64,000 nucleotides of DNA from an uncultured Legionella sp. Its GTDB lineage: Bacteria; Pseudomonadota; Gammaproteobacteria; Legionellales; Legionellaceae. Below are positions 1 through 59,320 of this stretch, in pieces. The position numbers and the translations under genes were made by a program. Position 1 is the first letter of the stretch; each line of letters starts with the position of its first letter. The stretch spans positions 26,637-90,636 of the forward strand of contig CAZNVR010000001.1 of NCBI GenBank assembly GCA_964576655.1. Reading direction: 5' to 3'. Below the pieces are notes generated by a model. That model saw nothing but the letters and a program-made list of their open reading frames with translations, had not been told where the DNA came from and made no database searches.

Positions 1-295
1 AATCTTTAACACTTATGCCATGATATGCAGCTTGTGAAAGCGTATTTTCTTCGGCGTGACAACATATACACTCATGTAAATCAATGCTCGATGCAATATT
101 ATGATTATTGCAGCGTGGACATCCACCTTCATCGCAATTCTGAATGCCTCGTGGTGTACCATTATATCCAGTGGAAATAATACGTCCATCTTTTACTAAG
201 ATCGCGCCGACTTGACGACGACAACAGCTTGAGCGCATAGCGACAACACTTGCAATGCGTAAAAAATATTCATCTAAAGTCATTTTATTCATCAT
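1..295 (-). CDS. dCMP deaminase (deoxycytidylate deaminase family), N-terminal part only; 3' end lies beyond the window start
   Basis: Hand translation of the minus strand from ATG 295 (alternatives 292/283) gives MMNKMTLDEYFLRIASVVAMRSSCCRRQVGAILVKDGRIISTGYNGTPRG..GGCPRC..HECICCHAEENT. It has the CxHAEEN zinc/catalytic-Glu motif. It is missing from the ORF track because it is truncated. Confidence 0.8.
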   Translation of the reverse strand, partial: MMNKMTLDEYFLRIASVVAMRSSCCRRQVGAILVKDGRIISTGYNGTPRGIQNCDEGGCPRCNNHNIASSIDLHECICCHAEENTLSQAAYHGISVKD

Positions 296-692
296 TTGTA
301 TCAAAATCTAAATATTGCGTAAAATCATGCTTTGATTTCATTTTTCGGTGTAGTTTCATTAGAGATCGTTTAATATATAAATCGGCAGATGTGATAGTAG
401 AATTTGTAAGTGTTGCAATTTCATCTAATGTATGGACCTTATTATGTAGATGCTGATATGTGAAAAAGCAATAGTTGCTATCACCATGGACTATATACCA
501 TTCGCACTGCTCGTGAGGTGGACCTTGTTGATAGATCGTATTCAAGGCATATGGACACGGTTCACCAGAAAGACATTTGAGCTGACGAGGACAACGTGAA
601 TCCATTGGAATTGTTGAATAAAGTCGTTCTTTCTCTTTAGGATTCATTAAGTTAATGTCTTCAAATCCAGTTGTAATTTTCTTTTTACGCAT
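285..692 (-). CDS. Cys/His-rich small protein with C-terminal sigma-70 region-4-like helix-turn-helix
   Basis: 135 aa. N-terminal CPRQLKC..PCPY..HEQCEW..YCFF cluster. The C-terminal HTLDEIATLTNSTITSADLYIKRSLMKLHRKM resembles a sigma region 4.2 HTH. Confidence 0.4.
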   Translation of the reverse strand: MRKKKITTGFEDINLMNPKEKERLYSTIPMDSRCPRQLKCLSGEPCPYALNTIYQQGPPHEQCEWYIVHGDSNYCFFTYQHLHNKVHTLDEIATLTNSTITSADLYIKRSLMKLHRKMKSKHDFTQYLDFDTNDE

Positions 693-1290: not shown

Positions 1291-1363
1291 ATTATCATCG
1301 TCTCTCCGATGCGCCTCTCTCCCTATTATGCACCTATAGGGTCATGGCTTTAAGTTAGCACTG

Positions 1364-1385
1364 AATTGGTCACCACTAGTTGCTG
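1364..1385. repeat. direct repeat copy 1 (AATTGGTCACCACTAGTTGCTG) inside island A
   Basis: Matches 1515-1537 (AATTGGTCGCCCCCTAGTTGCTT), 151 nt away. Confidence 0.7.
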
Positions 1386-1514
1386 TGGAGGCAGGGCTTG
1401 ATACCTGCTGATGATCTTGTTGAGATAGTCGATTACAACTACGCCTTCATTACACCGATCAATAGTATCATCTAAGTCCTTATTCGCACGTCCTTCCGTG
1501 CCGCTCCACAATTA

Positions 1515-1537
1515 AATTGGTCGCCCCCTAGTTGCTT
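1515..1537. repeat. direct repeat copy 2 inside island A
   Basis: See 1364-1385. Consensus is AATTGGTCRCC(M)CTAGTTGCT. Confidence 0.7.
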
Positions 1538-1660
1538 GCTGGGTACGCTCTGACTTAACTTCACGCGCAATTAATCGTTCTACCCAATGTCAGATTAATT
1601 ACTAGGCTCCGTCGCGCATATTACAAGCAACATCGGGGCGTTGTTATAATAATCTGTACC

Positions 1661-2794
1661 TCATATTTCCACCTTATAAGCTTTTGAATGTTTAGGACAA
1701 ATGATTTGCCAAATAATACTATCGTATTCTTTCTCGCTTAACATAGCAAATAAGATTGTATTAAGTTTCTTAGGATGGGTCATGATTTTTAATGCTGCTT
1801 CTTTTCGCGGCAATTGATCAAGTTGTTCTCCCATATATATCGATAGAACTTGTTGGCGTATAGTACGGAATTTCTCTTTATAATGCTCTGAGACATCTGT
1901 GACCCATTTATAAAGCTCATCGGGTACACGATCAACAAGTCGTGTAATAAGTGATTCTTTACATTCTAGTATGTCTTCTACGTAGTACTTATCTAAGTTA
2001 AGCTTCAATCCAATGACCTTTGCATCTGTCATGCCTTTGCTTCTTAAGCTATCGATGGCTACAGCTTCCCAGATGGCCCGAGTGTTAAGTCCTGTAACAA
2101 GTTTATGTAGTCGGACGTATTCTTTAAATTTGATCTTTAGACGTAAACCAGAAGCATATTGAATAACATAGCCTTCTGCATTATCTTCTTGTTTGTTTAA
2201 TAAGAATTGTAAATCTCCCTTAGCATAGTGGCGATAAGGAGTTTCAATTGGAAGAATCTCATAGACGTCTGATCCATTGTCATTATCAATTGTTGCGATA
2301 TGAACAAGTTTCCGTTCATCTCCATAATTCACAACTATACGATTTTCTGGATAGATAATCTCGAATAAATATGTATAGGATTTTCGATTCTCTTGAAGAT
2401 AGCGGACAAAATTTGTTTTAGAACGAAGCATTTTAGTGCCTTCAAGCGCTTGATTGCTGGTAAAGCTTCCGCGCGTTGCAATATACGGTATATCGCCAAT
2501 CCAGTACATAATCCCTAAACTTCCATCAAACTTCATTGTAATTGTAAATTCTTCATCTGGTAATGGTTCTTTATGTTCTTCTAAATTGAAGAATTTTCTA
2601 AATGGTCTAGCTACAATATTATCTTCGCCATCTAAGATTAATCCACGACACATTAGTGTTTCAGGAGTCCAATATTTATTATATTGACATTTTGACGTAT
2701 AGTTGTAGATATATAGATCTTCAGTAGGATGTTTTTGAACTGAAATATATCGTTCTTCGATTAACTCTTTAAATTTAGTTGTATCAATTTTCAT
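1661..2794 (-). CDS. RNA ligase 1 (T4 RnlA/gp63-like)
   Basis: 377 aa. Motif I is KFDGSLG. MCRGLIL..ARPFRKFFNLEE, GSFTSNQA and FEIIYPENRIV are collinear with T4 Rnl1 ECRGIMF..SRPMEKFFNLNE, KEDGSL, GSIKSEQA and FEFVAPTNRIV (recalled from memory). Confidence 0.8.
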   Translation of the reverse strand: MKIDTTKFKELIEERYISVQKHPTEDLYIYNYTSKCQYNKYWTPETLMCRGLILDGEDNIVARPFRKFFNLEEHKEPLPDEEFTITMKFDGSLGIMYWIGDIPYIATRGSFTSNQALEGTKMLRSKTNFVRYLQENRKSYTYLFEIIYPENRIVVNYGDERKLVHIATIDNDNGSDVYEILPIETPYRHYAKGDLQFLLNKQEDNAEGYVIQYASGLRLKIKFKEYVRLHKLVTGLNTRAIWEAVAIDSLRSKGMTDAKVIGLKLNLDKYYVEDILECKESLITRLVDRVPDELYKWVTDVSEHYKEKFRTIRQQVLSIYMGEQLDQLPRKEAALKIMTHPKKLNTILFAMLSEKEYDSIIWQIICPKHSKAYKVEI

Positions 2795-2907
2795 TTTTTA
2801 TTAAAAGTTACATTCGTACTAAAAAGTACAGCTAAAATCCAAAGCCATAATGGAAAAGACCAGTTCAATGGTCCATATTTAAGAATTAATAATAACATTA
2901 ACGCCAT
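2791..2907 (-). CDS. small membrane protein (38 aa), below ORF-track cutoff
   Basis: MALMLLLILKYGPLNWSFPLWLWILAVLFSTNVTFNKK*. Its TGA overlaps the ATG of the ligase gene (ATGA coupling). Confidence 0.4.
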   Translation of the reverse strand: MALMLLLILKYGPLNWSFPLWLWILAVLFSTNVTFNKK

Positions 2908-2918
2908 AAATTTAAGTT

Positions 2919-3527
2919 TTACGTAAAATCAACCTCTACTTTTAATCTAACGTTGAGACTAGGAATACCAATTTTATTCACTAATCCATATTGAACAGCT
3001 TCTTCTGTACCTATATACCAATCAGCATGGCCTCGTTTATGAACTAATTTTGTAAAGTAATCTTCACGTTTACCACAATTCTTAGCCAATATTGTATAAA
3101 TAAGGTTATTTAATTTAATTAATTGCTCTGTATCAGATTTAATTTCGCCAATCTTGCCCATCGACATACTGGATGCATCATGGATCATAAATGTCGAATT
3201 AGCGGAAGCAAATCGCATCCCATCTGTACCACAAGAGAATAGAATAACACCACAACTCATTGCTTTACCAACACATATAGTCGCGACAGACTTTTTACAT
3301 GATCGTATAATGTCGATCATAGCTAATAATGAATAAACGCATCCGCCATAAGAATCAATTAAAATAGGAATAACTGGTTGACTTGATTGCGATGCCCTTA
3401 AGACATCAGCATGAAAATTTTTTACGGCAGATTCATTAAATTCATTAACAGTTACAATGACCGGTAAATCGATAAGATCCTCTGCTTTTTTACTTTTAAA
3501 GGCATTATCAATTTCTATATTGATCAT
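2919..3527 (-). CDS. ClpP-family serine protease-like protein
   Basis: Motifs IDSYGGCVYSLLAMIDIIRS, GKAMSCGVILFS (Ser), FMIHDAS (His) and C-terminal EEAVQYGLVNKI. The start is moved to ATG 3527 (MINIEID), 2 nt after the upstream stop. Confidence 0.7.
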   Translation of the reverse strand: MINIEIDNAFKSKKAEDLIDLPVIVTVNEFNESAVKNFHADVLRASQSSQPVIPILIDSYGGCVYSLLAMIDIIRSCKKSVATICVGKAMSCGVILFSCGTDGMRFASANSTFMIHDASSMSMGKIGEIKSDTEQLIKLNNLIYTILAKNCGKREDYFTKLVHKRGHADWYIGTEEAVQYGLVNKIGIPSLNVRLKVEVDFT

Positions 3528-3529
3528 AA

Positions 3530-4273
3530 TTATCTTATACCATCTAATCTCCAAAAACGTTCTAACATTGTCATTTGTAATTTTTCAATAGCATCGCGAT
3601 CTGGTGCCCATTGTAAGAGGGATTTTTGATATAATGTATCAATACGTTCCTCTAATTGAATGGCTTGTGCTAAAACAGTTTCTAATGAATAGACTCCTGA
3701 TCGAATATCTTTTAATTCTTCAACATGTAGTGATGGGTAAATAATTTCTTCATGTTCAAAAATATCAATCGCTTCATATAAGAGTCGTATAAGATGCATA
3801 GCAAACTTCGTGTCATAACCATACTGTTCAATTAGCGCATAACGTTTACTATTAGCTTGAGGATTCTTAATAAGAATCTTATGACGTTGAGTATGAGCAT
3901 ATCCTTTAAAAGCATGATATGCTTTCTTAGATAAAAATAAATGACGATTCTCTATAAGTTCTTCGCCAAACATTGTATTATAAACAATCTTGTTTTCAGG
4001 CGTATAGAGAATACTAAGGATGTTTGGATTATTAGCGATCGCTAATTGAATAAATTTGATTAAACCATAGCACGTATAATCAACATTTTTACCATCAATT
4101 TTATCATTAAGAACAAGATGTTCACATTTCGATAATCCATATACATATTCTTTTGGAAAGATACAAATGCCTTGGAAGTCATCATCTGATTCAATAGTAT
4201 CAGTACCATAAAGTTTGGAGCCGGTTCGAACCTTAAGAATTAAATTCTCTTGTGCGAGTCGTTGTTCTTGCAT
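3530..4273 (-). CDS. Pol-beta superfamily nucleotidyltransferase (RlaP / PF10127-like, RNA-ligase-associated)
   Basis: 247 aa. The N-terminal VRTGSKLYGTDTIESDDDFQGICI is the GS..SDxD nucleotidyltransferase signature. It sits in the same operon as Rnl1. Confidence 0.6.
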   Translation of the reverse strand: MQEQRLAQENLILKVRTGSKLYGTDTIESDDDFQGICIFPKEYVYGLSKCEHLVLNDKIDGKNVDYTCYGLIKFIQLAIANNPNILSILYTPENKIVYNTMFGEELIENRHLFLSKKAYHAFKGYAHTQRHKILIKNPQANSKRYALIEQYGYDTKFAMHLIRLLYEAIDIFEHEEIIYPSLHVEELKDIRSGVYSLETVLAQAIQLEERIDTLYQKSLLQWAPDRDAIEKLQMTMLERFWRLDGIR

Positions 4274-4274
4274 A

Positions 4275-4505
4275 TCATGGTTGTTTATTTAATATAGCAA
4301 CAGCATCATCTAAACATTGTAAGATGATTTTATTCATCTTGTCATGATAATAAATATCAAAAACTTTATCCACAAATTTCTCTTCACGTACTGCCCATAA
4401 TTCATAAAGGGCACTTCGAAGCTTCATTGATTGACTTGTGCCTTTATTGATACGTTGTATCGCATCTTTGCGCCATTGAACTGAATCAATTTTAGTTTGT
4501 TCCAT
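4275..4505 (-). CDS. hypothetical protein
   Basis: 76 aa, 1-nt gaps to both neighbours. No motif recognised. Confidence 0.6.
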   Translation of the reverse strand: MEQTKIDSVQWRKDAIQRINKGTSQSMKLRSALYELWAVREEKFVDKVFDIYYHDKMNKIILQCLDDAVAILNKQP

Positions 4506-4506
4506 A

Positions 4507-5040
4507 TCAATCCCACCAATCTAATAAATGTTGTCGTAAAATTTTACTAAAAAGCATTAAATCCTGTCGTTTTAATGAGTCTTCTTTTTTATATAATGCG
4601 AGAATACTAGCTCTATTAGCTTTAGGATGTGAAACCCATTCAACACTTCCATCTTCATGTTCTATTGTTGTATGAGGATATGCTGTATGATATTCATCTA
4701 ATTCGGTGCTAATATATTCATCATCTATAAGTCGTTGTAATGCGAATCGACATTCTTTCATTTGTTCAGCATTTTTAGGCGCATCATTTGAATGAGCATC
4801 ATTTAAAAAATGTTTTTCCATCAATTCTAATTTAAGACATATTAATTTCGCGAAATAATACCAATCCCAATCAAATGATGTAAGTGCATATTTTCCAAAT
4901 ATGTAAAGTAATTTTAAACGATATGCTACATGAGATGGTCGGAATAAACGAAAAAAATCTACAATCCGACCATAATAGTATTCAATTTCAAAACGTAATA
5001 TGTCGAGTTTTGATTTTTTTGTACGTGATGGAAATAACAT
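4507..5040 (-). CDS. hypothetical protein
   Basis: 177 aa with an AAAGGA SD upstream. No motif recognised. Confidence 0.65.
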   Translation of the reverse strand: MLFPSRTKKSKLDILRFEIEYYYGRIVDFFRLFRPSHVAYRLKLLYIFGKYALTSFDWDWYYFAKLICLKLELMEKHFLNDAHSNDAPKNAEQMKECRFALQRLIDDEYISTELDEYHTAYPHTTIEHEDGSVEWVSHPKANRASILALYKKEDSLKRQDLMLFSKILRQHLLDWWD

Positions 5041-5701: not shown

Positions 5702-6202
5702 TCATAAGGGTACGAAAGAAAGTGATTTTAAATTAATTGAATTCTCTAATTCTTTATCATATTGAAAATCATTTGCTAATTGATTTAATTGTTGGATATA
5801 GAATTGATCGTCATGGTAAAAGCGATGAATAACGTGATGATTATGAATTTCAGTAAACCACCGAAAACCTTGGACCATATCTTTCACCTTTAAAAGCATC
5901 TTCTTAACTTTTCGATTTCCCAAGGCGACAACCATGCGTGGACGAATTAATTCAAGTTCCATTGCAAGAGCTTCATGCCACTCATCTTCAGAATGCATCC
6001 AGCGTTTTTCCGCAGTAGTGATGTAGATATGGTGTAGATTAATACTCGATCGTTCTAAATAAGAACGGAATAACTTAATAGATTCACTTTCAATATCATA
6101 TTGATCAGACCATTCATCAATAAAGACTAAATTTGCATCTGTAGAACCGAAGCCTAAGGCTTGAACAGATTTGAGCTTTGATGAAATTAGCTTAGTATCC
6201 AC
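5702..6202 (-). CDS. uracil-DNA glycosylase superfamily-like protein, degenerate motifs
   Basis: 166 aa. GFGSTDANLVFIDEWSD sits where family-4 UDG has GEGP..A.IMFVGEAPG. IYITTAEKR matches (TN..KC), and LIRPRMVVALGN is also UDG-like. The catalytic motifs are not conserved. Confidence 0.4.
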   Translation of the reverse strand: MDTKLISSKLKSVQALGFGSTDANLVFIDEWSDQYDIESESIKLFRSYLERSSINLHHIYITTAEKRWMHSEDEWHEALAMELELIRPRMVVALGNRKVKKMLLKVKDMVQGFRWFTEIHNHHVIHRFYHDDQFYIQQLNQLANDFQYDKELENSINLKSLSFVPL

Positions 6203-7979: not shown

Positions 7980-8519
7980 CTAATCGTTTGTAGATGTGTC
8001 ATGATGATCGATTGGCTCCCATTCCTTGGTTTTCATAATCTCTTGAACTTGATCAAATGAAATTGGTCTATAATCATTGACATCTATACCAACATCATGC
8101 TGTCGTAAATTTGGAAGTATCTCTAATGTACCATGACTATGGCCATGGAGATTCCAACTTCCATGATGTGAGTTGCGCCAAGTTCTCATCGCATAATGAC
8201 ATAAAACTATTAATTGTTTTTGATACTTAAGTTCATAATAGTCTTTAACCCATTCAAAGCGTTCAGCATAGATTTGTTTATCGTGATTTCCTTTAACTAA
8301 GTAGATCCGACCTTTTAAAGAATCAAGAATATCTTTTGTGGTGTTATATGATCCTAAAGCAAAATCACCTAAATGATATATTTCATCAGTTAAGCTGACT
8401 GTATCATTCCATCGTTTTACAAGTTCTTCATTCATCTCTTGAACAGAAGCAAATGGACGATTGCAATATTTTATAACATTGGCATGATTAAAATGCGTAT
8501 CGGCAGTAAAGAAAATCAT
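7980..8519 (-). CDS. calcineurin-like metallophosphoesterase
   Basis: 179 aa. Motifs DTHFNH, HLGDF, VKGNHD, LCHY and HGHSHG appear in the canonical order. Confidence 0.8.
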   Translation of the reverse strand: MIFFTADTHFNHANVIKYCNRPFASVQEMNEELVKRWNDTVSLTDEIYHLGDFALGSYNTTKDILDSLKGRIYLVKGNHDKQIYAERFEWVKDYYELKYQKQLIVLCHYAMRTWRNSHHGSWNLHGHSHGTLEILPNLRQHDVGIDVNDYRPISFDQVQEIMKTKEWEPIDHHDTSTND

Positions 8520-8911
8520 TTTGTGACTTTCTTATCAGATTTGTAGATTGTAGTAAGTTTCTTTTTCATTATAGTGATTAGTGATGGATTTCTATATTCA
8601 TAATTATCTGGTACATCAAGATTTAAAATTTTTCCTTTATAACCACGATCTTGTAATTGCTCAACTTGTTGTAAACTCATACACACTACTTCATCAGCCC
8701 ATTCTAAAAGTATATTATCAACTGGAATTAATGCATAAGATTCAAGTCCAGCTGCACGTGTATTAAAATTAAATGGTGATTTTGATAATATCAGAGCTGC
8801 AGTAGGAGAACGCAATAATCCAGCTGAACAGACACATAAGACCTTGCGAAATGCTCCTTGATTTGGATTTTTTACGTTCCATAGTCTATTCATATCGATT
8901 TCATCTGTCAT
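8516..8911 (-). CDS. low-molecular-weight phosphotyrosine phosphatase / ArsC-family phosphatase
   Basis: 131 aa. VLCVCSAGLLRSP is a C-X5-R-S P-loop, and the downstream DVPDNY is a general-acid-like motif. 4-nt overlap with the metallophosphoesterase gene. Confidence 0.65.
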   Translation of the reverse strand: MTDEIDMNRLWNVKNPNQGAFRKVLCVCSAGLLRSPTAALILSKSPFNFNTRAAGLESYALIPVDNILLEWADEVVCMSLQQVEQLQDRGYKGKILNLDVPDNYEYRNPSLITIMKKKLTTIYKSDKKVTK

Positions 8912-10140: not shown

Positions 10141-11094
10141 TTATCTTTCTAAATATGCATTACTAACAATCTTAAGTTGGAGTCTACCGACTTCGTATTC
10201 ATATCGCTCAATAGTAGGTCTAATCACAATTCCTTCTCGTATCTGATTCTCATATAATTCTGTCTTTCCTTCGGCTAAATCTTTGATTTTGAGCTCACTA
10301 TATGGCCCACGGTATATGAGTGGACAGAACTGCATACCTTGACCCATCGACTGCATTTCATCATAACTGAGCCATCTGCCATGATCGTAGACGTCAAAGA
10401 CTCTAATATCAGGTTCGGAACGCCCATATCTAAGGTCTTGCACAGGTCCGAACACTTCTCCATAGACTGCAAGTCCTTCGTGCGCCTGAAGCCAAGTCGA
10501 TAACCATGGACAATTCTTTAAAGCATTCCACCACATATTATTATCGGCTTCTTTAACCCATCGAGTGCGTGATCCACAATGCATCTGTCCGTTAACAAAA
10601 ACGAATCGACCATTTGCTCCATGGACCTTCTCTGTTGCGACGATCTCTTCATTCTCTTGGAATAAATGTCCATATCTATGCCATGATTCAACGTCATAAA
10701 TTGGATAAACGCCTTCTGGTGCATTGGCTTCTTCAGCGAATGAACTAATGCCTCGAATAGGTGGATCATATCGTGTGATACCAATTATCGGTGCCGCATC
10801 ATCTCCTTCTTTTAATCCTTCAGGTGATGGTATCAATAATCCTTGAGAATATACACCCCTAAAACGACGAACTTTAATTCGTTTGCTATCTTTCAGGAAG
10901 TCGAATTGTGGAGTATCTGGTACAACGCTGTCTGGCTGTATATAAACCGCAAGATCTCCTTCGTGCCAATCAGCTAGGCGAACACAGATTGTAAAATTCC
11001 ATATCTTAACAATACCTAAGGTATCGGCATTTGGATGTTTTTCGATTGCTCCAAGTTGAACAACGTCAGCTCTATGGGTTGATTTTGTTTCCAT
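10141..11094 (-). CDS. RNA ligase, Rnl2/DraRnl(Rnl5)-like: N-terminal OB-like domain plus adenylyltransferase domain
   Basis: 317 aa. Motif I is EKVHGANGRF (T4 Rnl2 has EKIHGTNFS). VYGEVFGPVQD matches VFGEFAGPGIQ. The N-terminal 110 aa resemble the OB module of DRB0094-type ligases. Confidence 0.7.
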   Translation of the reverse strand: METKSTHRADVVQLGAIEKHPNADTLGIVKIWNFTICVRLADWHEGDLAVYIQPDSVVPDTPQFDFLKDSKRIKVRRFRGVYSQGLLIPSPEGLKEGDDAAPIIGITRYDPPIRGISSFAEEANAPEGVYPIYDVESWHRYGHLFQENEEIVATEKVHGANGRFVFVNGQMHCGSRTRWVKEADNNMWWNALKNCPWLSTWLQAHEGLAVYGEVFGPVQDLRYGRSEPDIRVFDVYDHGRWLSYDEMQSMGQGMQFCPLIYRGPYSELKIKDLAEGKTELYENQIREGIVIRPTIERYEYEVGRLQLKIVSNAYLER

Positions 11095-11304: not shown

Positions 11305-11305
11305 G

Positions 11306-11378
11306 AGCTAGCGGTAGGACTCGAACCTACAACCTCCGCATTACAAATGCGGAGCTCTGCCAATTGAGCTACGCTAGC
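11306..11378 (-). tRNA. tRNA-Thr(UGU): tRNA-Thr (anticodon UGU), no encoded CCA
   Basis: Hand-folded cloverleaf: GCTAGCG-TA-GCTC-AATTGGCA-GAGC-T-CCGCA-TTTGTAA-TGCGG-AGGTT-GTAGG-TTCGAGT-CCTAC-CGCTAGC-T. All four stems are perfect. Confidence 0.9.
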
Positions 11379-25309: not shown

Positions 25310-25676
25310 TTTTGAAAATCACCTCATTTAAATCTTGTAGCCATTGAGATGATTGAATTGATCCATCATCATTGAACTGTCGCACAACCCCTACATTTGC
25401 TAATGATACTATATTAAGTGCGGCATGTGGTGATCCATTGAGTCGAGGAATTTCACCTATCATAGCTTTCTTAGGAAAATTTAACTTTGTTACGTTTTCT
25501 TTTAATACAACAACTTCACTCTGAGGAAAACCTTGAATTTGATCAATTTTCAAAATTAAATAATTTCCACCTACATTCTTAACTTTGCATTTTAATAAAA
25601 CATCATAATCTGTAGCATAAAAAGAAGATATAATCTTATCATTTGATAATTGCATATTAAAATCCAATAACTTCAT
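25296..25676 (-). CDS. hypothetical protein
   Basis: 126 aa. Confidence 0.6.
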   Translation of the reverse strand: MKLLDFNMQLSNDKIISSFYATDYDVLLKCKVKNVGGNYLILKIDQIQGFPQSEVVVLKENVTKLNFPKKAMIGEIPRLNGSPHAALNIVSLANVGVVRQFNDDGSIQSSQWLQDLNEVIFKNEDK

Positions 25677-26172
25677 GTAAAGTTACTCGATGATCAAAAC
25701 CCTCTTCATCATCAGGTACTTCTAATTGAGCATAAAATGTATGATGCAATCTATTGACCATTTCTGTTGCATCTTGTATACTAATGCCTTTTTGCATAGC
25801 ACATTGAACCGCACGTTGAGCAGCAAGTGGCATTTCAATATCAATATATAAAAGTCCAACAGATGCATTGTATTCACGAGCTAATTTTATCCATGATTGC
25901 CGTATTGTTTTTGTTGGATTAATATCATCAATAATTAATAAATTACCAGAAATTAACGCATAGCGAGCAAAAATCATTTGTTGAGCGTGATTTAAACGTT
26001 TTCCATCAATACGTGTTCCACCTAAAGCTTTATAAATCAAGCGATACGCAAGAGTTTTTCCAGCTCCTTGCGGTCCACATAACACAATAACACAACATTG
26101 ACTAAGTGATTCAACAAACTTCATAGATCCATTATAGCATGAATTAGATGTTGTTTGTATCATCATTATCAT
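25657..26172 (-). CDS. P-loop kinase, polynucleotide-kinase (T4 Pnk kinase domain)-like; start uncertain
   Basis: Walker A is LCGPQGAGKT. LIIDDINPTKTIRQSWIKLAREY..IDIEMPLAAQRA parallels T4 Pnkp [34 protein letters not shown] (recalled). Confidence 0.5.
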   Translation of the reverse strand: MIMMIQTTSNSCYNGSMKFVESLSQCCVIVLCGPQGAGKTLAYRLIYKALGGTRIDGKRLNHAQQMIFARYALISGNLLIIDDINPTKTIRQSWIKLAREYNASVGLLYIDIEMPLAAQRAVQCAMQKGISIQDATEMVNRLHHTFYAQLEVPDDEEGFDHRVTLHEVIGF

Positions 26173-28270: not shown

Positions 28271-29218
28271 TTATACTACTTTTTTATGAGTTTTCGTTGA
28301 AAGAAACAATGCAAGGTCTTTAGAATAGCATGCAATTTTATTCATTTGTATTGTGGTGTCTTTTTGTTTCCAAATTGATTTTAAAACAAACATTTCCACA
28401 AATAATTGCCAAAAAGGATCAATTGGTAAAAGCTCATGTGGATAATCATTCATATTAGAATTACGTAATATGCCTTCAATAATAGAAACATTATCTAGAT
28501 TATTCAGATTATCTTCTAAAGAAGTAGAATGTAATATCGGTAACTCTCCTGATGTCGATTGTTCATCAATCAACTCACGGGCTAATTGAAAATGTGCTTC
28601 ATATATATGCATTGAATTAGCAGTTAAATAAAGTTCACCCGGCACAATTCCAACACAACTTGCAATAAAATTTAATAACAAACAAAATGATGGCACATCA
28701 TAATTGTTTCCCCAAATGGCGTCATTGCTTCGCATTAAAACATGTAGATTTAATTGATTGTCGCGAATTAAAAAATGTAATGCCACAGTACACGGAACAT
28801 CTTTGCTAGTAGGTGGATTCCATCTCCAAAATGTCATGATTGCTTGACGTGTATCAGGATCTTTTTTTAAGGTATTAACCACAAAACGTAATTGTTCACG
28901 AAATGGTATGCCATACGCACCGTCATGGATACCGTCTTCTGAAAAAGACGAGATGTTTTTGTTATAATAATGCAGCATGGCTGTATCATTACGACCTAAT
29001 AAATACCATAGATTTTCAGCAAATAAAAAGAAAAAATTAAGATTACGTTTTTCTGATAAATATAAGCACTTCAATGGATCAATAGGACCCATCGTGTATG
29101 GACCACGAGCCTCTAGAGTTAATTGACCTCTTGGCGAAACTTTACGACCATTTGTTAAAATACAATCAACGGCTTTTTTAAACTCTATATGATATTCGTG
29201 ACCTTGTTGCAAAATCAA
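28271..29218 (-). CDS. ThyA-family pyrimidine C5-transferase, dCMP hydroxymethylase-like (T4 gp42-like)
   Basis: 315 aa. DPDTRQAIMTFW, catalytic-Cys motif VPCTVALHFLIRD and MRSNDAIWGNNYD are present. Asp occupies the position of E. coli ThyA Asn177, as with Asp179 of T4 gp42. Confidence 0.7.
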   Translation of the reverse strand: MILQQGHEYHIEFKKAVDCILTNGRKVSPRGQLTLEARGPYTMGPIDPLKCLYLSEKRNLNFFFLFAENLWYLLGRNDTAMLHYYNKNISSFSEDGIHDGAYGIPFREQLRFVVNTLKKDPDTRQAIMTFWRWNPPTSKDVPCTVALHFLIRDNQLNLHVLMRSNDAIWGNNYDVPSFCLLLNFIASCVGIVPGELYLTANSMHIYEAHFQLARELIDEQSTSGELPILHSTSLEDNLNNLDNVSIIEGILRNSNMNDYPHELLPIDPFWQLFVEMFVLKSIWKQKDTTIQMNKIACYSKDLALFLSTKTHKKVV

Positions 29219-30167
29219 CTCCTTTCGTAAACATCTCGGCGTATTCTTTTAATTTTTCATAATGAAAACGTTTCCAATATGAAGGATGTGGTATCATAAT
29301 CTTATTTGAATCATCATCAATTTCATATTTCGTTGCAAAATCCGCAGCTTTTTGTCCTAGAAAAACAATCGTCTTCGGCTTAATCCATTGAATTTCAAGC
29401 TTCAGTATTTCGGCTGCAACATCATCATTAGGAAGCCAAGGTTTAAAAGCATTTGTTAAATAGATGTCCTTCTTATACAAATTTGATTCTTTTAGCGTCG
29501 AATATAAATACTCTGATGAAGTACCAGAAGAAAATGGATATTCATTCAATGTGGCTTTAGGACGTAATTGTTCGCCAACAATCATAATTTCAGCGTTACG
29601 ACTTCCAGTACTTCGTGCATCAATAGTATTCAATTTAGAATTAATAAATGAAGTATTCGTACGTCTTTCGATAAGTGGTTGGACATGCGCGACAAATGTT
29701 TGAGCTGAACATTTAGCAGAATCATAAAAAATTGGATTTAATGAAGATTTTTTCAAAATTATTTCATTAAATAATTCAATCGCTTTATTGATGTCATTAT
29801 TATAATTAAATTCCGCTAATGATTCATTAGTTGCAACACAGCGATTATAAATAGTTTTGGCATCGGTTGACGAATAAATTAATAATGCATCATTCTTTTT
29901 TGCCAACATATCAAAAACCCAAAATTGAAAATCTGAAATTGTACATCCATCACGATAAAGATTTGAATAAACATATTCACCTAAATAAAATCGATCAAAC
30001 ACAACATCTTGACCTTCATATTCTTGGAATAATTGTAAGTATTCTTGATAAGGATTGTTAGTCTGTGGCTTAGAACAATGAATTAACTTAAAATTAAAAT
30101 CACGCGCTATTATTTCCGCTAAAGTTGATTTTCCAGATCGATCTAATCCTTCAATTATGATAAACAT
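29178..30167 (-). CDS. fusion protein: thymidylate/dNMP kinase-like P-loop domain + uracil-DNA-glycosylase-superfamily domain
   Basis: 329 aa. The N-terminus has IIIEGLDRSGKSTLAE..DRFYLGEYVY (Tmk-like). The C-terminus has EIMIVGEQ, IYLTNAFKPW, PKTIVFLGQKAA and IPHPSYW (UDG family-4-like motifs A/B). Confidence 0.6.
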   Translation of the reverse strand: MFIIIEGLDRSGKSTLAEIIARDFNFKLIHCSKPQTNNPYQEYLQLFQEYEGQDVVFDRFYLGEYVYSNLYRDGCTISDFQFWVFDMLAKKNDALLIYSSTDAKTIYNRCVATNESLAEFNYNNDINKAIELFNEIILKKSSLNPIFYDSAKCSAQTFVAHVQPLIERRTNTSFINSKLNTIDARSTGSRNAEIMIVGEQLRPKATLNEYPFSSGTSSEYLYSTLKESNLYKKDIYLTNAFKPWLPNDDVAAEILKLEIQWIKPKTIVFLGQKAADFATKYEIDDDSNKIMIPHPSYWKRFHYEKLKEYAEMFTKGVDFATRSRISYRV

Positions 30168-57616: not shown

Positions 57617-59320
57617 TTATGATTCGTTTTGACCTTCTTCATTAACATAAAAATTATCCTTAATTTTCATATTGGAGGGTTTAATAATAATGGATCCACC
57701 ACTTCGTAATAACATAGTGGCAATTGAAACAGCATTCGATAATGCCGTTTTAACAACTTTAAAAGGATCAATTACGCCAGCTTGTATCATATCTTCTTCA
57801 ATTCTATTAGCTCTTGCATTATAGCCTACATTTGGATATTCCATAAATTTATTTAATAATTCCAAAACAACAATATCTGCGCTACGTTTCCCAGAATTAT
57901 AAATAATTTGACGTATTGATGCTTCACAAATCTTGCCAAAAATTTGCATTGCAATTTGTTCTTCTCGCGATACACCATCAACTAATGCATTCTGTTGATC
58001 GCATAACATCTGAAAAGCAAAGAGTAAAGCAGAACCACCTCCTGCTACAACACCTTCCTCTAAAGCAGCACGAGTTGCATTTAAGGCATCTTCAATTCGA
58101 TCCTTCTTTTCTTTCATTTCAAGTTCAGTAACAGCACCAACTTCAATAATAGCAATGCCACCAATTAAACGTCCTAAGCGTTCTTTTAATATATCTCTAT
58201 CAAATTCTGAAGGAGCATCTTTCATCTGAACACGCAAAGCGTCAGCGCGTGACTGAATTTCAGCATCAGAACCACTACCATTATAAATAATGGTTTCACG
58301 TCGTGATCCAATAATACGTTCAGCACCACCTAAATATTCGCTATCATGATTAGTAATATCAGATAATTTACTCAATCCCGGCCTTACAACTTTAGCACCG
58401 CTTAAGATTGCAATATCGTCAATAACATTGCTTTGACTATACATTGATCCAAGTTTAGGAACTTTAATTGGCAAAAGTTTTAGACCCATCTGTTGGGCAT
58501 TAATCATAACAATATTTATGATTTGAGGAGAAAAATCATGAGCAAAAATCACTAATGGAATAGCATCTTGACCACCACAATTGATTGAATTTAAACAACG
58601 ACCAAAATCGACAACATCATCGATAACTCCATCATAAGCAATAATGGCTGGCGTTTCATAACGGACTTGCTGTGCAACTGGTGCATTAATTAAGCAGACT
58701 CCATGGGGTCCTAAGCTACCAAAACCACGCTGAATTGAGAAGCCTTCTTCTAATCTCAGCGCTGTTCGAATTCCACCTTCTTCTAAAGACACAACGCCAT
58801 CAACTCCGACAGCATCAATAGCTTTTGTTACAATTTCAGCTATTTCATCATCGCCATTACAAGATATATAAGCAACATTATGAACTTTATCTGTTGTGTT
58901 GATTTCCACTGCTAATTTTGATAGTTGTTCAATAAGCATTGTAGAAACTTTAATTAGATGATCTCCTAAACTTTGCGGATTAATTGTATTAGTTTGAAGA
59001 TAGGCTTGTGATTCCTTAATAAGTGATTCAGTAAGCAAAATCGCTGTAGTTGTTCCATCACCAGCAATAGAATTTGTTTTCATTGCTGCTTCTTTAATAG
59101 ATTGAATAATAGCATTAATAGCGGGATCTTCGACAAATACATGATTAGCAACAGTTACGCCATCTTTTGTAATTAGTGGAACTTGACCAGGTCTATCTAA
59201 TACAATTGGAAGACCATCTGGACCTAAGGTAGCTTTAACAGGTTCAGCAAGAAGCTGAATAGCTTGTAAAACTTGTTTTTGAAAATCTACCTTACTATAA
59301 ATGAGTTTTGCATCAGACAT
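57617..59320 (-). CDS. groEL: GroEL-family chaperonin
   Basis: 567 aa with LGPDGLPIVLD, AGDGTTTAILL, VVAGGG and an overall collinear Cpn60 layout. Confidence 0.9.
   Translation of the reverse strand: MSDAKLIYSKVDFQKQVLQAIQLLAEPVKATLGPDGLPIVLDRPGQVPLITKDGVTVANHVFVEDPAINAIIQSIKEAAMKTNSIAGDGTTTAILLTESLIKESQAYLQTNTINPQSLGDHLIKVSTMLIEQLSKLAVEINTTDKVHNVAYISCNGDDEIAEIVTKAIDAVGVDGVVSLEEGGIRTALRLEEGFSIQRGFGSLGPHGVCLINAPVAQQVRYETPAIIAYDGVIDDVVDFGRCLNSINCGGQDAIPLVIFAHDFSPQIINIVMINAQQMGLKLLPIKVPKLGSMYSQSNVIDDIAILSGAKVVRPGLSKLSDITNHDSEYLGGAERIIGSRRETIIYNGSGSDAEIQSRADALRVQMKDAPSEFDRDILKERLGRLIGGIAIIEVGAVTELEMKEKKDRIEDALNATRAALEEGVVAGGGSALLFAFQMLCDQQNALVDGVSREEQIAMQIFGKICEASIRQIIYNSGKRSADIVVLELLNKFMEYPNVGYNARANRIEEDMIQAGVIDPFKVVKTALSNAVSIATMLLRSGGSIIIKPSNMKIKDNFYVNEEGQNES

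Follow-up and report, generated by a model that had tools for sequence, protein, structure and literature searches.

A probable phage RNA-repair cassette of known kind with an inserted ClpP-family protease gene, on a contig from an uncultured Legionella assembly

When genes for an RNA ligase, a nucleotidyltransferase and a protease lie back to back on one strand, do the three enzymes work together? This question was raised by a locus in a 64,000-nucleotide stretch of DNA (the window) from an uncultured Legionella sp., which corresponds to C1:26637-90636 of a 103,553-bp contig (CAZNVR010000001.1, assembly GCA_964576655.1). Positions marked C1 are those of the contig, and all others are those of the window. 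The contig is the genome of a tailed phage, or a large part of one, of about 100 kb. An Rnl1-type RNA ligase, a small hydrophobic peptide, a ClpP-family protease and an RlaP-family nucleotidyltransferase are encoded side by side, and an earlier note, made from the sequence alone, had seen in them and in an adjacent element called island A an 'expanded RNA-damage countermeasure module'. We consider it likely that the locus represents a known kind of phage RNA-repair cassette, consisting of two upstream open reading frames (ORFs), p177 and p76, followed by RlaP, the peptide and Rnl1, into which ClpP was inserted as a bare ORF and from which Pnkp is missing. What was established directly is which families the proteins belong to, that the catalytic residues of the enzymes are intact, and how the genes are ordered and conserved.

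The four ORFs (1661-2794, 2791-2907, 2919-3554 and 3530-4273) were all present on the minus strand, co-oriented and tightly packed as the earlier note had described them. Along the direction of transcription the order was p177, p76, RlaP, ClpP, peptide and Rnl1, with RlaP lying 736 nt upstream of Rnl1. Read from Rnl1 up to p177, the spacers measured -4, 11, 2, 1 and 1 nt: the Rnl1 start codon overlaps the stop codon of the peptide gene (ATGA), the ClpP stop codon is followed by 11 nt and then the peptide gene, and the RlaP stop codon by 2 nt and then the ClpP ATG. The genes are probably co-transcribed, yet a dedicated operon is not implied by their packing. On the 103.5-kb contig 146 of the 163 non-overlapping ORFs share the minus strand, and because the whole genome arm is equally co-oriented and dense, the packing is not special and is uninformative on function. 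Neither promoter-like consensus sites (62 vs 66.8 in shuffled sequences) nor terminator-like sites (3 vs 5.0) were found in excess.

The locus was compared with stretches of relatives labelled L001-L219, mostly metagenomic and IMG/VR phage contigs, each covered in part. The closest relatives of Rnl1 (P0122, 55% identity) and of RlaP (P0246, 56%) were found to share one 61.2-kb metagenomic contig, which forms the closest relative block (L049/L050/L051) and is also present at NCBI as a contig of a metagenome-assembled genome. L051 carries, in this order, homologues of an Rnl5-type ligase of the window (54%, syntenic), of a UDG-like protein (66%), of p177 (34%, at the same position), of p76 (an 85-aa ORF preceding RlaP, 52%) and of RlaP, then a 39-aa peptide in the same slot (10745-10864, 57% over 30 aa), Rnl1, a 68-aa ORF, a T4-type Pnkp (AAA_33 + HAD_PNKP), a 111-aa ORF, a homologue of window 285-692 (65%), a dCMP deaminase (64%) and a prohead protease (58%). 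Between RlaP and the peptide gene L051 has 9 nt and no ClpP. The order RlaP-Rnl1-Pnkp was also found in L063 and, with an unrelated 63-aa ORF in between, in L128, and the order Rnl1-Pnkp-RlaP in L056 and L127. In the second-closest relative of the ligase (50% identity) Pnkp follows directly. The linkage of RlaP to a ligase, kept throughout L049-L051, recurs in these four loci and in L018, L138, L167 and L175.

In a ligase-side survey of 80 IMG/VR and 80 metagenome loci of the Rnl1 family, taken with flanks of 5-6 kb, RlaP was adjacent to or near the ligase in 5 of the IMG/VR and in 5-7 of the metagenome loci. Judged from gene order, what is conserved is a unit of RlaP, a small ORF and Rnl1, to which Pnkp is usually added. 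Such an association of RlaP with ligases is already in the literature and not new. RlaP stands for 'RNA ligase-associating Pol-beta', and in jumbo phages it is distributed in the same way as RNA ligases (PMC7824862). The statement in the earlier note that such nucleotidyltransferases associate with RNA ligases fits that work, a recent preprint (bioRxiv 10.64898/2025.12.29.696909) and the RlaP-peptide-Rnl1 order kept in the closest relative.

The peptides of the window and of L051 share the core LIL-YGPLNWS-P-W-W, and mismatches between the two genes fell 10/7/16 on the three codon positions. The 38-aa membrane peptide proposed earlier thus exists as an ORF, is hydrophobic and is kept in L051. 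Its identity of 57% is about that of the flanking enzymes, and ATGA coupling to Rnl1 was seen in both phages.

The ligase matched PF09511 (RNA_lig_T4_1) with E 3.3e-15 and 57 bits against a gathering cut-off of 28.3, and phrog_562 with E 3.6e-68; its best match among PDB sequences was T4 Rnl1 (E 1e-18). The KFDGSLG motif, from which an Rnl1-like ligase had originally been recognised, corresponds to K88, D90, G91, S92 and G94, which are invariant among 12 homologues. Invariant in the same 12 are the residues of motifs I, III, IV and V (K88, D90, G91, E145, E207, G208, K220 and K222), and the nucleotidyltransferase motif residues align with T4 Rnl1. An AF2 model (pLDDT 87.6) consists of a nucleotidyltransferase domain and an all-helical C-terminal domain with helices at 224-370. 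Its top Foldseek match was T4 Rnl1 (2c5u, E 5e-19, 397 columns, TM 0.55), followed by fungal Trl1 ligase domains. No sequence similarity to T4 Rnl1 was detectable in the C-terminal domain, and the likeness there is structural and does not imply tRNA specificity. Against the NCBIfam equivalog TIGR02308 the protein scored 73 bits, below the cut-off of 242.25, and by these profile scores it is a member of the Rnl1 family and not a T4 RnlA equivalog.

Profile searches placed the 247-aa protein in PF10127 (E 4.6e-22, 79.4 bits against a gathering cut-off of 23) and in phrog_388 (E 3.9e-55) rather than in an unrelated nucleotidyltransferase family, which bears out its description as RlaP-like. In the GS...SDDD stretch G18, S19, S29, D30 and D32 do not vary, and at least 90% of the homologues keep D65; together these residues give the Pol-beta signature G[GS]x9-13DxD and the third catalytic Asp (D65). 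An AF2 model (pLDDT 91) shows an N-terminal nucleotidyltransferase domain and a C-terminal helical domain. Compared by description only, this layout resembles the crystal structure of PfRlaP with its closing C-terminal helix. The top Foldseek matches were two-domain Pol-beta nucleotidyltransferases (3c18, ANT(4') and HalB), and a phmmer search against PDB sequences gave no match at E <= 0.01. Recently, PfRlaP and PaRlaP were shown to add 1-2 nucleoside monophosphates to RNA 3'-OH ends, and RlaP combined with repair was shown to restore the function of over-damaged tRNA (bioRxiv 10.64898/2025.12.29.696909). By analogy, the RlaP of the window would be expected to extend RNA 3'-OH ends by 1-2 nucleotides.

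Several points weigh against reading the locus as a repair cassette. The contig has no recognisable polynucleotide 5'-kinase or Pnkp, and the repair pathway is incomplete on it. The insertion of ClpP is exact and frame-tight, which means that the protease is probably expressed together with the repair genes and leaves a small probability of a functional tie. When IMG/VR RlaP loci were searched by tblastn with the window ligase as query, an Rnl1-type ligase was adjacent in only 1 of 24, and the RlaP loci L052, L053 and L009 have no Rnl1-type ligase nearby. Because RlaP so often occurs without such a ligase, it may have ligase-independent roles.

RlaP and Rnl1 could instead be mere neighbours in a dense accessory region, each with a process of its own; in that case RlaP might rebuild tRNA 3' ends without ligation, and Rnl1 might serve, for example, in tail-fibre attachment. 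Such an activity has been reported for T4 gp63, and phrog_562 is annotated as 'RNA ligase and tail fiber protein attachment catalyst'. In most loci with an RlaP homologue there is indeed no Rnl1-type ligase close by, the closest IMG/VR contig with an RlaP, 94% complete, gave no PF09511 match at all, and co-orientation and tight packing are general in this genome arm. We nevertheless find this explanation unlikely, as the nearest relative has RlaP, peptide and Rnl1 in the same order, 55-57% identical and with Pnkp directly following, RlaP-Rnl1-Pnkp triads recur in unrelated contigs, and RlaP has been tied to repair by ligation in published work, both comparative and biochemical.

The protease gene can be read as a longer ORF (2919-3554, 211 aa) from a TTG at 3554. 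The ATG at 3527, giving 202 aa, is the most likely start, because the homologues are 202-205 aa long and align from residue 9-10 of the longer ORF, and because the source gene call is also 202 aa. The ClpP-family homologue of the earlier note was recovered with PF00574 (CLP_protease, E 1.6e-31, 110 bits with the cut-off at 20.2). It aligns with H. pylori ClpP (2zl0, E 1.1e-22), and its triad of Ser (GKAMSCG), His (MIHD) and Asp (HADW) matches that protein and is conserved across a subfamily with the signature IDSYGG...GKAMSCG...MIHDVS...GHADW. Thus all three enzymes, Rnl1, ClpP and RlaP, retain their catalytic residues. The NCBIfam ClpP models gave 70-102 bits, vs cut-offs of 228-361. At the N-terminus a short segment of 20 residues without conservation stands in place of the canonical axial-loop segment, which couples canonical ClpP to ClpX/ClpA, and no unfoldase gene was found among the ORFs scanned.

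The search for homologues gave 155 proteins of about 200 aa at E <= 1e-10, the best listed being 41-55% identical; the family is metagenomic and mostly phage-borne, on contigs of up to 584 kb. Tandem ClpP-like paralogues were seen in L005 (5346-6639, 28% and 41% identical to the window ClpP) and L001 (5397-6609), and the window has a single copy. Some homologues also score weakly for NfeD1b_N. A link to a Band-7/NfeD or Ro/Y-RNA scaffold, suggested by these matches, was rejected: no scaffold gene was found on the phage contig, PF01145 (Band-7) matched only the non-phage contig C30, and PF05731 (TROVE) had no match. The idea that the phage supplies ClpP to a host without one was rejected as well. 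Outside the phage contig, neither PF00574 nor the ClpX zinc finger had a match in the assembly, but this gap was traced to assembly incompleteness (88.9% complete), and every relative that is at least 90% complete, same-genus genomes included, carries a canonical ClpP (about E 1e-84).

The surroundings of ClpP homologues in other phages differ from those in the window. The orthologue P0002 (52% identity, one of the closest homologues) in L036 lies between Mre11-like and SbcC-like genes. L036 is collinear with the window phage over 13 genes of 33-59% identity, in an order that is conserved apart from ClpP, and in the window phage the same two genes are separated by a gap of only 240 nt. In about 10 further contexts (L001, L003-L007, L037/L038, L039/L040, L218 and L219) no relative of RlaP or Rnl1 was found by tblastn within 5-6 kb of the ClpP homologue. 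Its neighbours there were small uncharacterised ORFs, a dCMP deaminase, a nucleoside deoxyribosyltransferase-like protein, an adenylosuccinate synthase, a tRNA-synthetase-family (PF00749) gene, EF-Tu and a second ClpP paralogue. The low-identity ClpP locus L008 has a weak Rnl2-like match about 4 kb away, the sole such case. In the 595-kb phage LR756511.1 the ClpP, RlaP and Rnl1 families are all present, tens to hundreds of kb apart. From the ligase side, a ClpP-family gene was found near Rnl1 in 2/80 IMG/VR loci (L120 and L088) and in 0/80 metagenome loci, and by a rough estimate this rate of 2/160 is about what chance would give for a family common in phages (about 1-4%).

These distributions divide the module that had been proposed. 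The co-occurrence of RlaP and Rnl1 is conserved and stood, whereas the co-occurrence with ClpP is unique to this genome: L049-L051 have no ClpP, L036 has it elsewhere, and its rate beside Rnl1 is about that of chance. A co-occurrence confined to this genome is what the earlier note had named as refuting its reading. Read most simply, the comparison would make ClpP an accessory gene of patchy distribution, which in this lineage has entered the repair cassette as a bare ORF. The G+C content of the gene and its G+C at third codon positions (GC3) are the same as those of the neighbouring genes, so the insertion was either not recent or came from a similar genome.

ClpP could alternatively be a working part of the module, which breaks down a ribotoxin, or what activates it, as RlaP and Rnl1 mend the damaged RNA, or which processes or regulates a repair protein. 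It sits exactly between the repair genes, with spacers of 2 and 11 nt, so it should be co-expressed with them. In the jumbo-phage contig L120 a canonical ClpP lies 2.7 kb from a triad of Rnl1, metallophosphoesterase and kinase and 2.4 kb from an Rnl5-like ligase, and in L088 a diverged ClpP-like gene lies 0.6 kb from Rnl1. These two proteases, however, belong to different subtypes and are parted from the ligase by unrelated genes. With the arrangement absent from the closest relative (L049-L051), the orthologue in the recombination module of the syntenic L036, and no close RlaP or Rnl1 relative in the other contexts, we regard a working role in repair as quite improbable. The most far-reaching form of the idea, to which we give slighter odds still, is that the insertion was adaptive: an ATPase-independent ClpP would destroy the ribotoxin or its activator while RlaP and Rnl1 repair, and Pnkp would have been replaced by a metallophosphoesterase route and, in its former slot, an RNA element. 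If true, the locus would be a 'remove the attacker and mend the damage' transcription unit. That the ClpP-like protein is a displaced head-maturation (prohead) protease is scarcely credible: it does match head-maturation PHROGs (phrog_94, E 7e-26, and others) and the NCBIfam model Clp_rel_HeadMat (60.6 bits), but the latter score is below the cut-off of 120 and weaker than the matches to cellular ClpP models, head maturation is assigned to a distinct protease of the phage (phrog_1028, E 1e-35, C1:25197-26504) with a syntenic orthologue in relatives, and the gene lies among early/metabolic genes here and among recombination, nucleotide-metabolism or translation genes in relatives.

Table 1. Features of the repair locus and its surroundings in the window.
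Feature	Position	Strand	Match or property
Rnl1-clade ATP-dependent RNA ligase, 377 aa	1661..2794	-	PF09511, phrog_562
38-aa hydrophobic peptide gene	2791..2907	-	mean Kyte-Doolittle hydropathy 1.0
ClpP-family serine protease, 202 aa, phage-specific subfamily	2919..3527	-	PF00574
RlaP-family Pol-beta-fold nucleotidyltransferase, 247 aa	3530..4273	-	PF10127, phrog_388
p76, 76 aa, directly upstream of RlaP	4275..4505	-	conserved in L051
p177, 177 aa, upstream of p76	4507..5040	-	phrog_8579 family
Island A, ORF-free 370-nt element	1291..1660	-	G+C 45.9% vs 0.33 for the window
Calcineurin-like metallophosphoesterase, 179 aa	7980..8519	-	PF00149, PF12850
Second RNA ligase, DRB0094 (Rnl5) type with N-terminal OB domain	10141..11094	-	PF09414 (E 7.5e-29), PF21189

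The two upstream ORFs of the cassette (Table 1) were considered as hidden repair enzymes and rejected. Neither has a Pfam match, p76 has no PHROG match either, and p177 has no PDB relative by profile search. Homologues of p177 amounted to 302 representatives at E <= 1e-3, and 41 of the 50 that were aligned matched phrog_8579, whose function is not annotated; a scan of IMG/VR with p177 gave no match.

Pnkp was searched for in several ways. With the Pnkp of the relative as query, tblastn gave no match in the assembly at E <= 1e-3 and chance-level matches only on the contig at E <= 10. A PF25109 search of the whole assembly was negative, as it was in 14 control genomes, and a hidden Markov model built from 40 ligase-adjacent small kinases had no match on the phage contig. 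Two candidates for a 5'-kinase were rejected. The ORF at C1:6234-7253 matches AAA_33 and phrog_505 ('polynucleotide kinase'), but it has a Zeta_toxin-family domain (E 2e-20) and lies in the region of the virion genes; the AAA_33 match of 25657-26172 is weak and partial. Outside the window, at C1:4760-7253, two neighbouring ORFs of the virion region share the N-terminal motif HKYIKRTG-x-GNYKYWYKL, and one of them ends in the Zeta_toxin-family kinase domain. This protein may be an ejected or virion-associated kinase.

Between Rnl1 and the gene at 285-692, the window has island A, a 107-aa ORF and small ORFs, and the relative has the 68-aa ORF, Pnkp and the 111-aa ORF. Island A was rejected as a decayed Pnkp gene, since tblastn with the Pnkp of the relative gave nothing there even at E <= 10. 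It was also rejected as a known or shared RNA: it had no Rfam match at E <= 1 and no blastn relative in the compared loci or in the assembly. Its folding was modest, with a minimum free energy z-score of -2.6. The attachment of island A to the repair module, which the earlier note had made, was not supported by these results; the element does sit in part of the Pnkp slot.

A reasonable candidate for healing the 3' end, going by gene neighbourhoods, is the metallophosphoesterase encoded 3.7 kb from the cassette, because its homologues accompany Rnl1-type ligases and RlaP. Within 6 kb of Rnl1 they were found in 16 of the 80 IMG/VR loci, several of them directly adjacent, and in none of the 9 that carry a T4-type Pnkp, so that the two sets do not overlap. 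The commonest partner in IMG/VR was a small AAA_33 kinase of about 140 aa (40 loci, usually adjacent). In the metagenome loci it was Pnkp (about 28/80, usually directly after the ligase), with the metallophosphoesterase in 2/80. A triad of Rnl1, metallophosphoesterase and kinase occurs in L120 (7067-8156), a Metallophos gene lies directly after RlaP in L052, and homologues of the window enzyme lie near RlaP in L010 and L028. In the window (7980-8911) the gene overlaps that of a 131-aa protein with a C-X5-R-S P-loop, for which no Pfam, NCBIfam or PHROG-like relative was found in the loci examined. The two genes have no counterpart in the examined part of L051, which carries Pnkp.

From these components we infer the activities, substrates and timing of a repair cassette as follows. 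A ribotoxin of the host or of a rival, for example an anticodon nuclease, would cut tRNA or another RNA. The broken ends would be healed, the 3' end probably by the metallophosphoesterase. RlaP would then add 1-2 nucleotides to the 3'-OH where the toxin had removed a base, and the Rnl1-type ligase would seal the 3'-OH to a 5'-phosphate. The ClpP-like protease would be co-transcribed but would act independently of repair, as a patchy phage accessory protease.

The phage contig has a G+C content of 33.9%, vs 38.5% in the remainder of the 2.0-Mb assembly. Its virion genes include those for a major head protein (phrog_752, E 7e-62, C1:10567-12030) and a portal protein, and its replication genes encode a family-B DNA polymerase, a DnaB-like helicase and a primase. 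Ribonucleotide reductase, thymidylate synthase, UvsX-, Mre11- and SbcC-like proteins and a lysozyme are also encoded. A megablast search against INPHARED for near-identical phage genomes gave no match. Terminal repeats are absent from the contig, and because of this the contig itself may be incomplete. Additionally, a GroEL-like chaperonin of the phage is encoded at 57617-59320 (phrog_5725, E 5e-109), and at 29178-30167 a thymidylate-kinase-like P-loop N-terminus is fused to a UDG-superfamily domain. The stand-alone UDG-like protein, whose orthologue in the closest relative was listed above, lies at 5702-6202. The Rnl5-type ligase scored 152.3 bits for TIGR02306, vs a cut-off of 151.15, and its gene adjoins a tRNA-Thr (11305-11378); this ligase may serve other substrates than Rnl1.

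Gene adjacency in a dense single-strand arm of a phage genome is weak evidence of a functional module. Here two syntenic relatives sufficed to part the conserved core of RlaP, peptide and Rnl1 from the passenger ClpP. We take the locus to be a divergent phage example of RlaP-ligase repair, the biochemistry of which has only just been described, and not a new three-enzyme system. It offers leads in the cassette without Pnkp, in the metallophosphoesterase and small AAA_33 kinase families that accompany Rnl1 in the IMG/VR contigs more often than Pnkp does, and in the ligase-coupled peptide of 38-39 aa; the current picture of phage RNA repair is unchanged by them.

In T4, Pnkp and Rnl1 (gp63) repair tRNA and so counter the anticodon nuclease PrrC. 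Like T4, the window phage combines a ligase of the Rnl1 clade, in which all nucleotidyltransferase motifs and the helical C-terminal domain are found, with an RlaP-family nucleotidyltransferase, that of T4 being NrdC.11 (bioRxiv 10.64898/2025.12.29.696909). Unlike in T4, no Pnkp was detected on the contig or in the assembly, the ligase shares only about 23% identity with T4 Rnl1, and RlaP is encoded close to the ligase, the peptide and ClpP genes lying between. RNA-repair operons that contain RlaP have been described by Burroughs & Aravind 2016, as cited in PMC7824862, and PfRlaP and PaRlaP come from rtcB-rlaP-rtcA operons (Carruthers et al. 2025 preprint). The RlaP of the window shares with these the Pfam family, the GS...DxD...D site, a predicted fold of a nucleotidyltransferase domain with a helical domain, and the linkage to an RNA ligase, but its partner is an ATP-dependent 5'-phosphate ligase of the Rnl1 type and not RtcB.

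The closest match is the cassette of L049/L050/L051, which has the same p177-p76-RlaP-peptide-Rnl1 order at 34-57% identity in a collinear arm. There, as in L063 and L128, Pnkp follows the ligase and ClpP is absent, whereas the window has ClpP and, in the Pnkp slot, island A and after it unrelated small ORFs. Stand-alone ClpP proteins occur patchily in large and jumbo phages and have been proposed to be host-directed peptidases (Iyer et al. 2021, PMC7824862). The ClpP of the window resembles them in being free-standing, about 200 aa long and patchily distributed, with an intact Ser-His-Asp triad, and its subfamily departs from canonical ClpP by the short, unconserved N-terminus in place of the axial loop.

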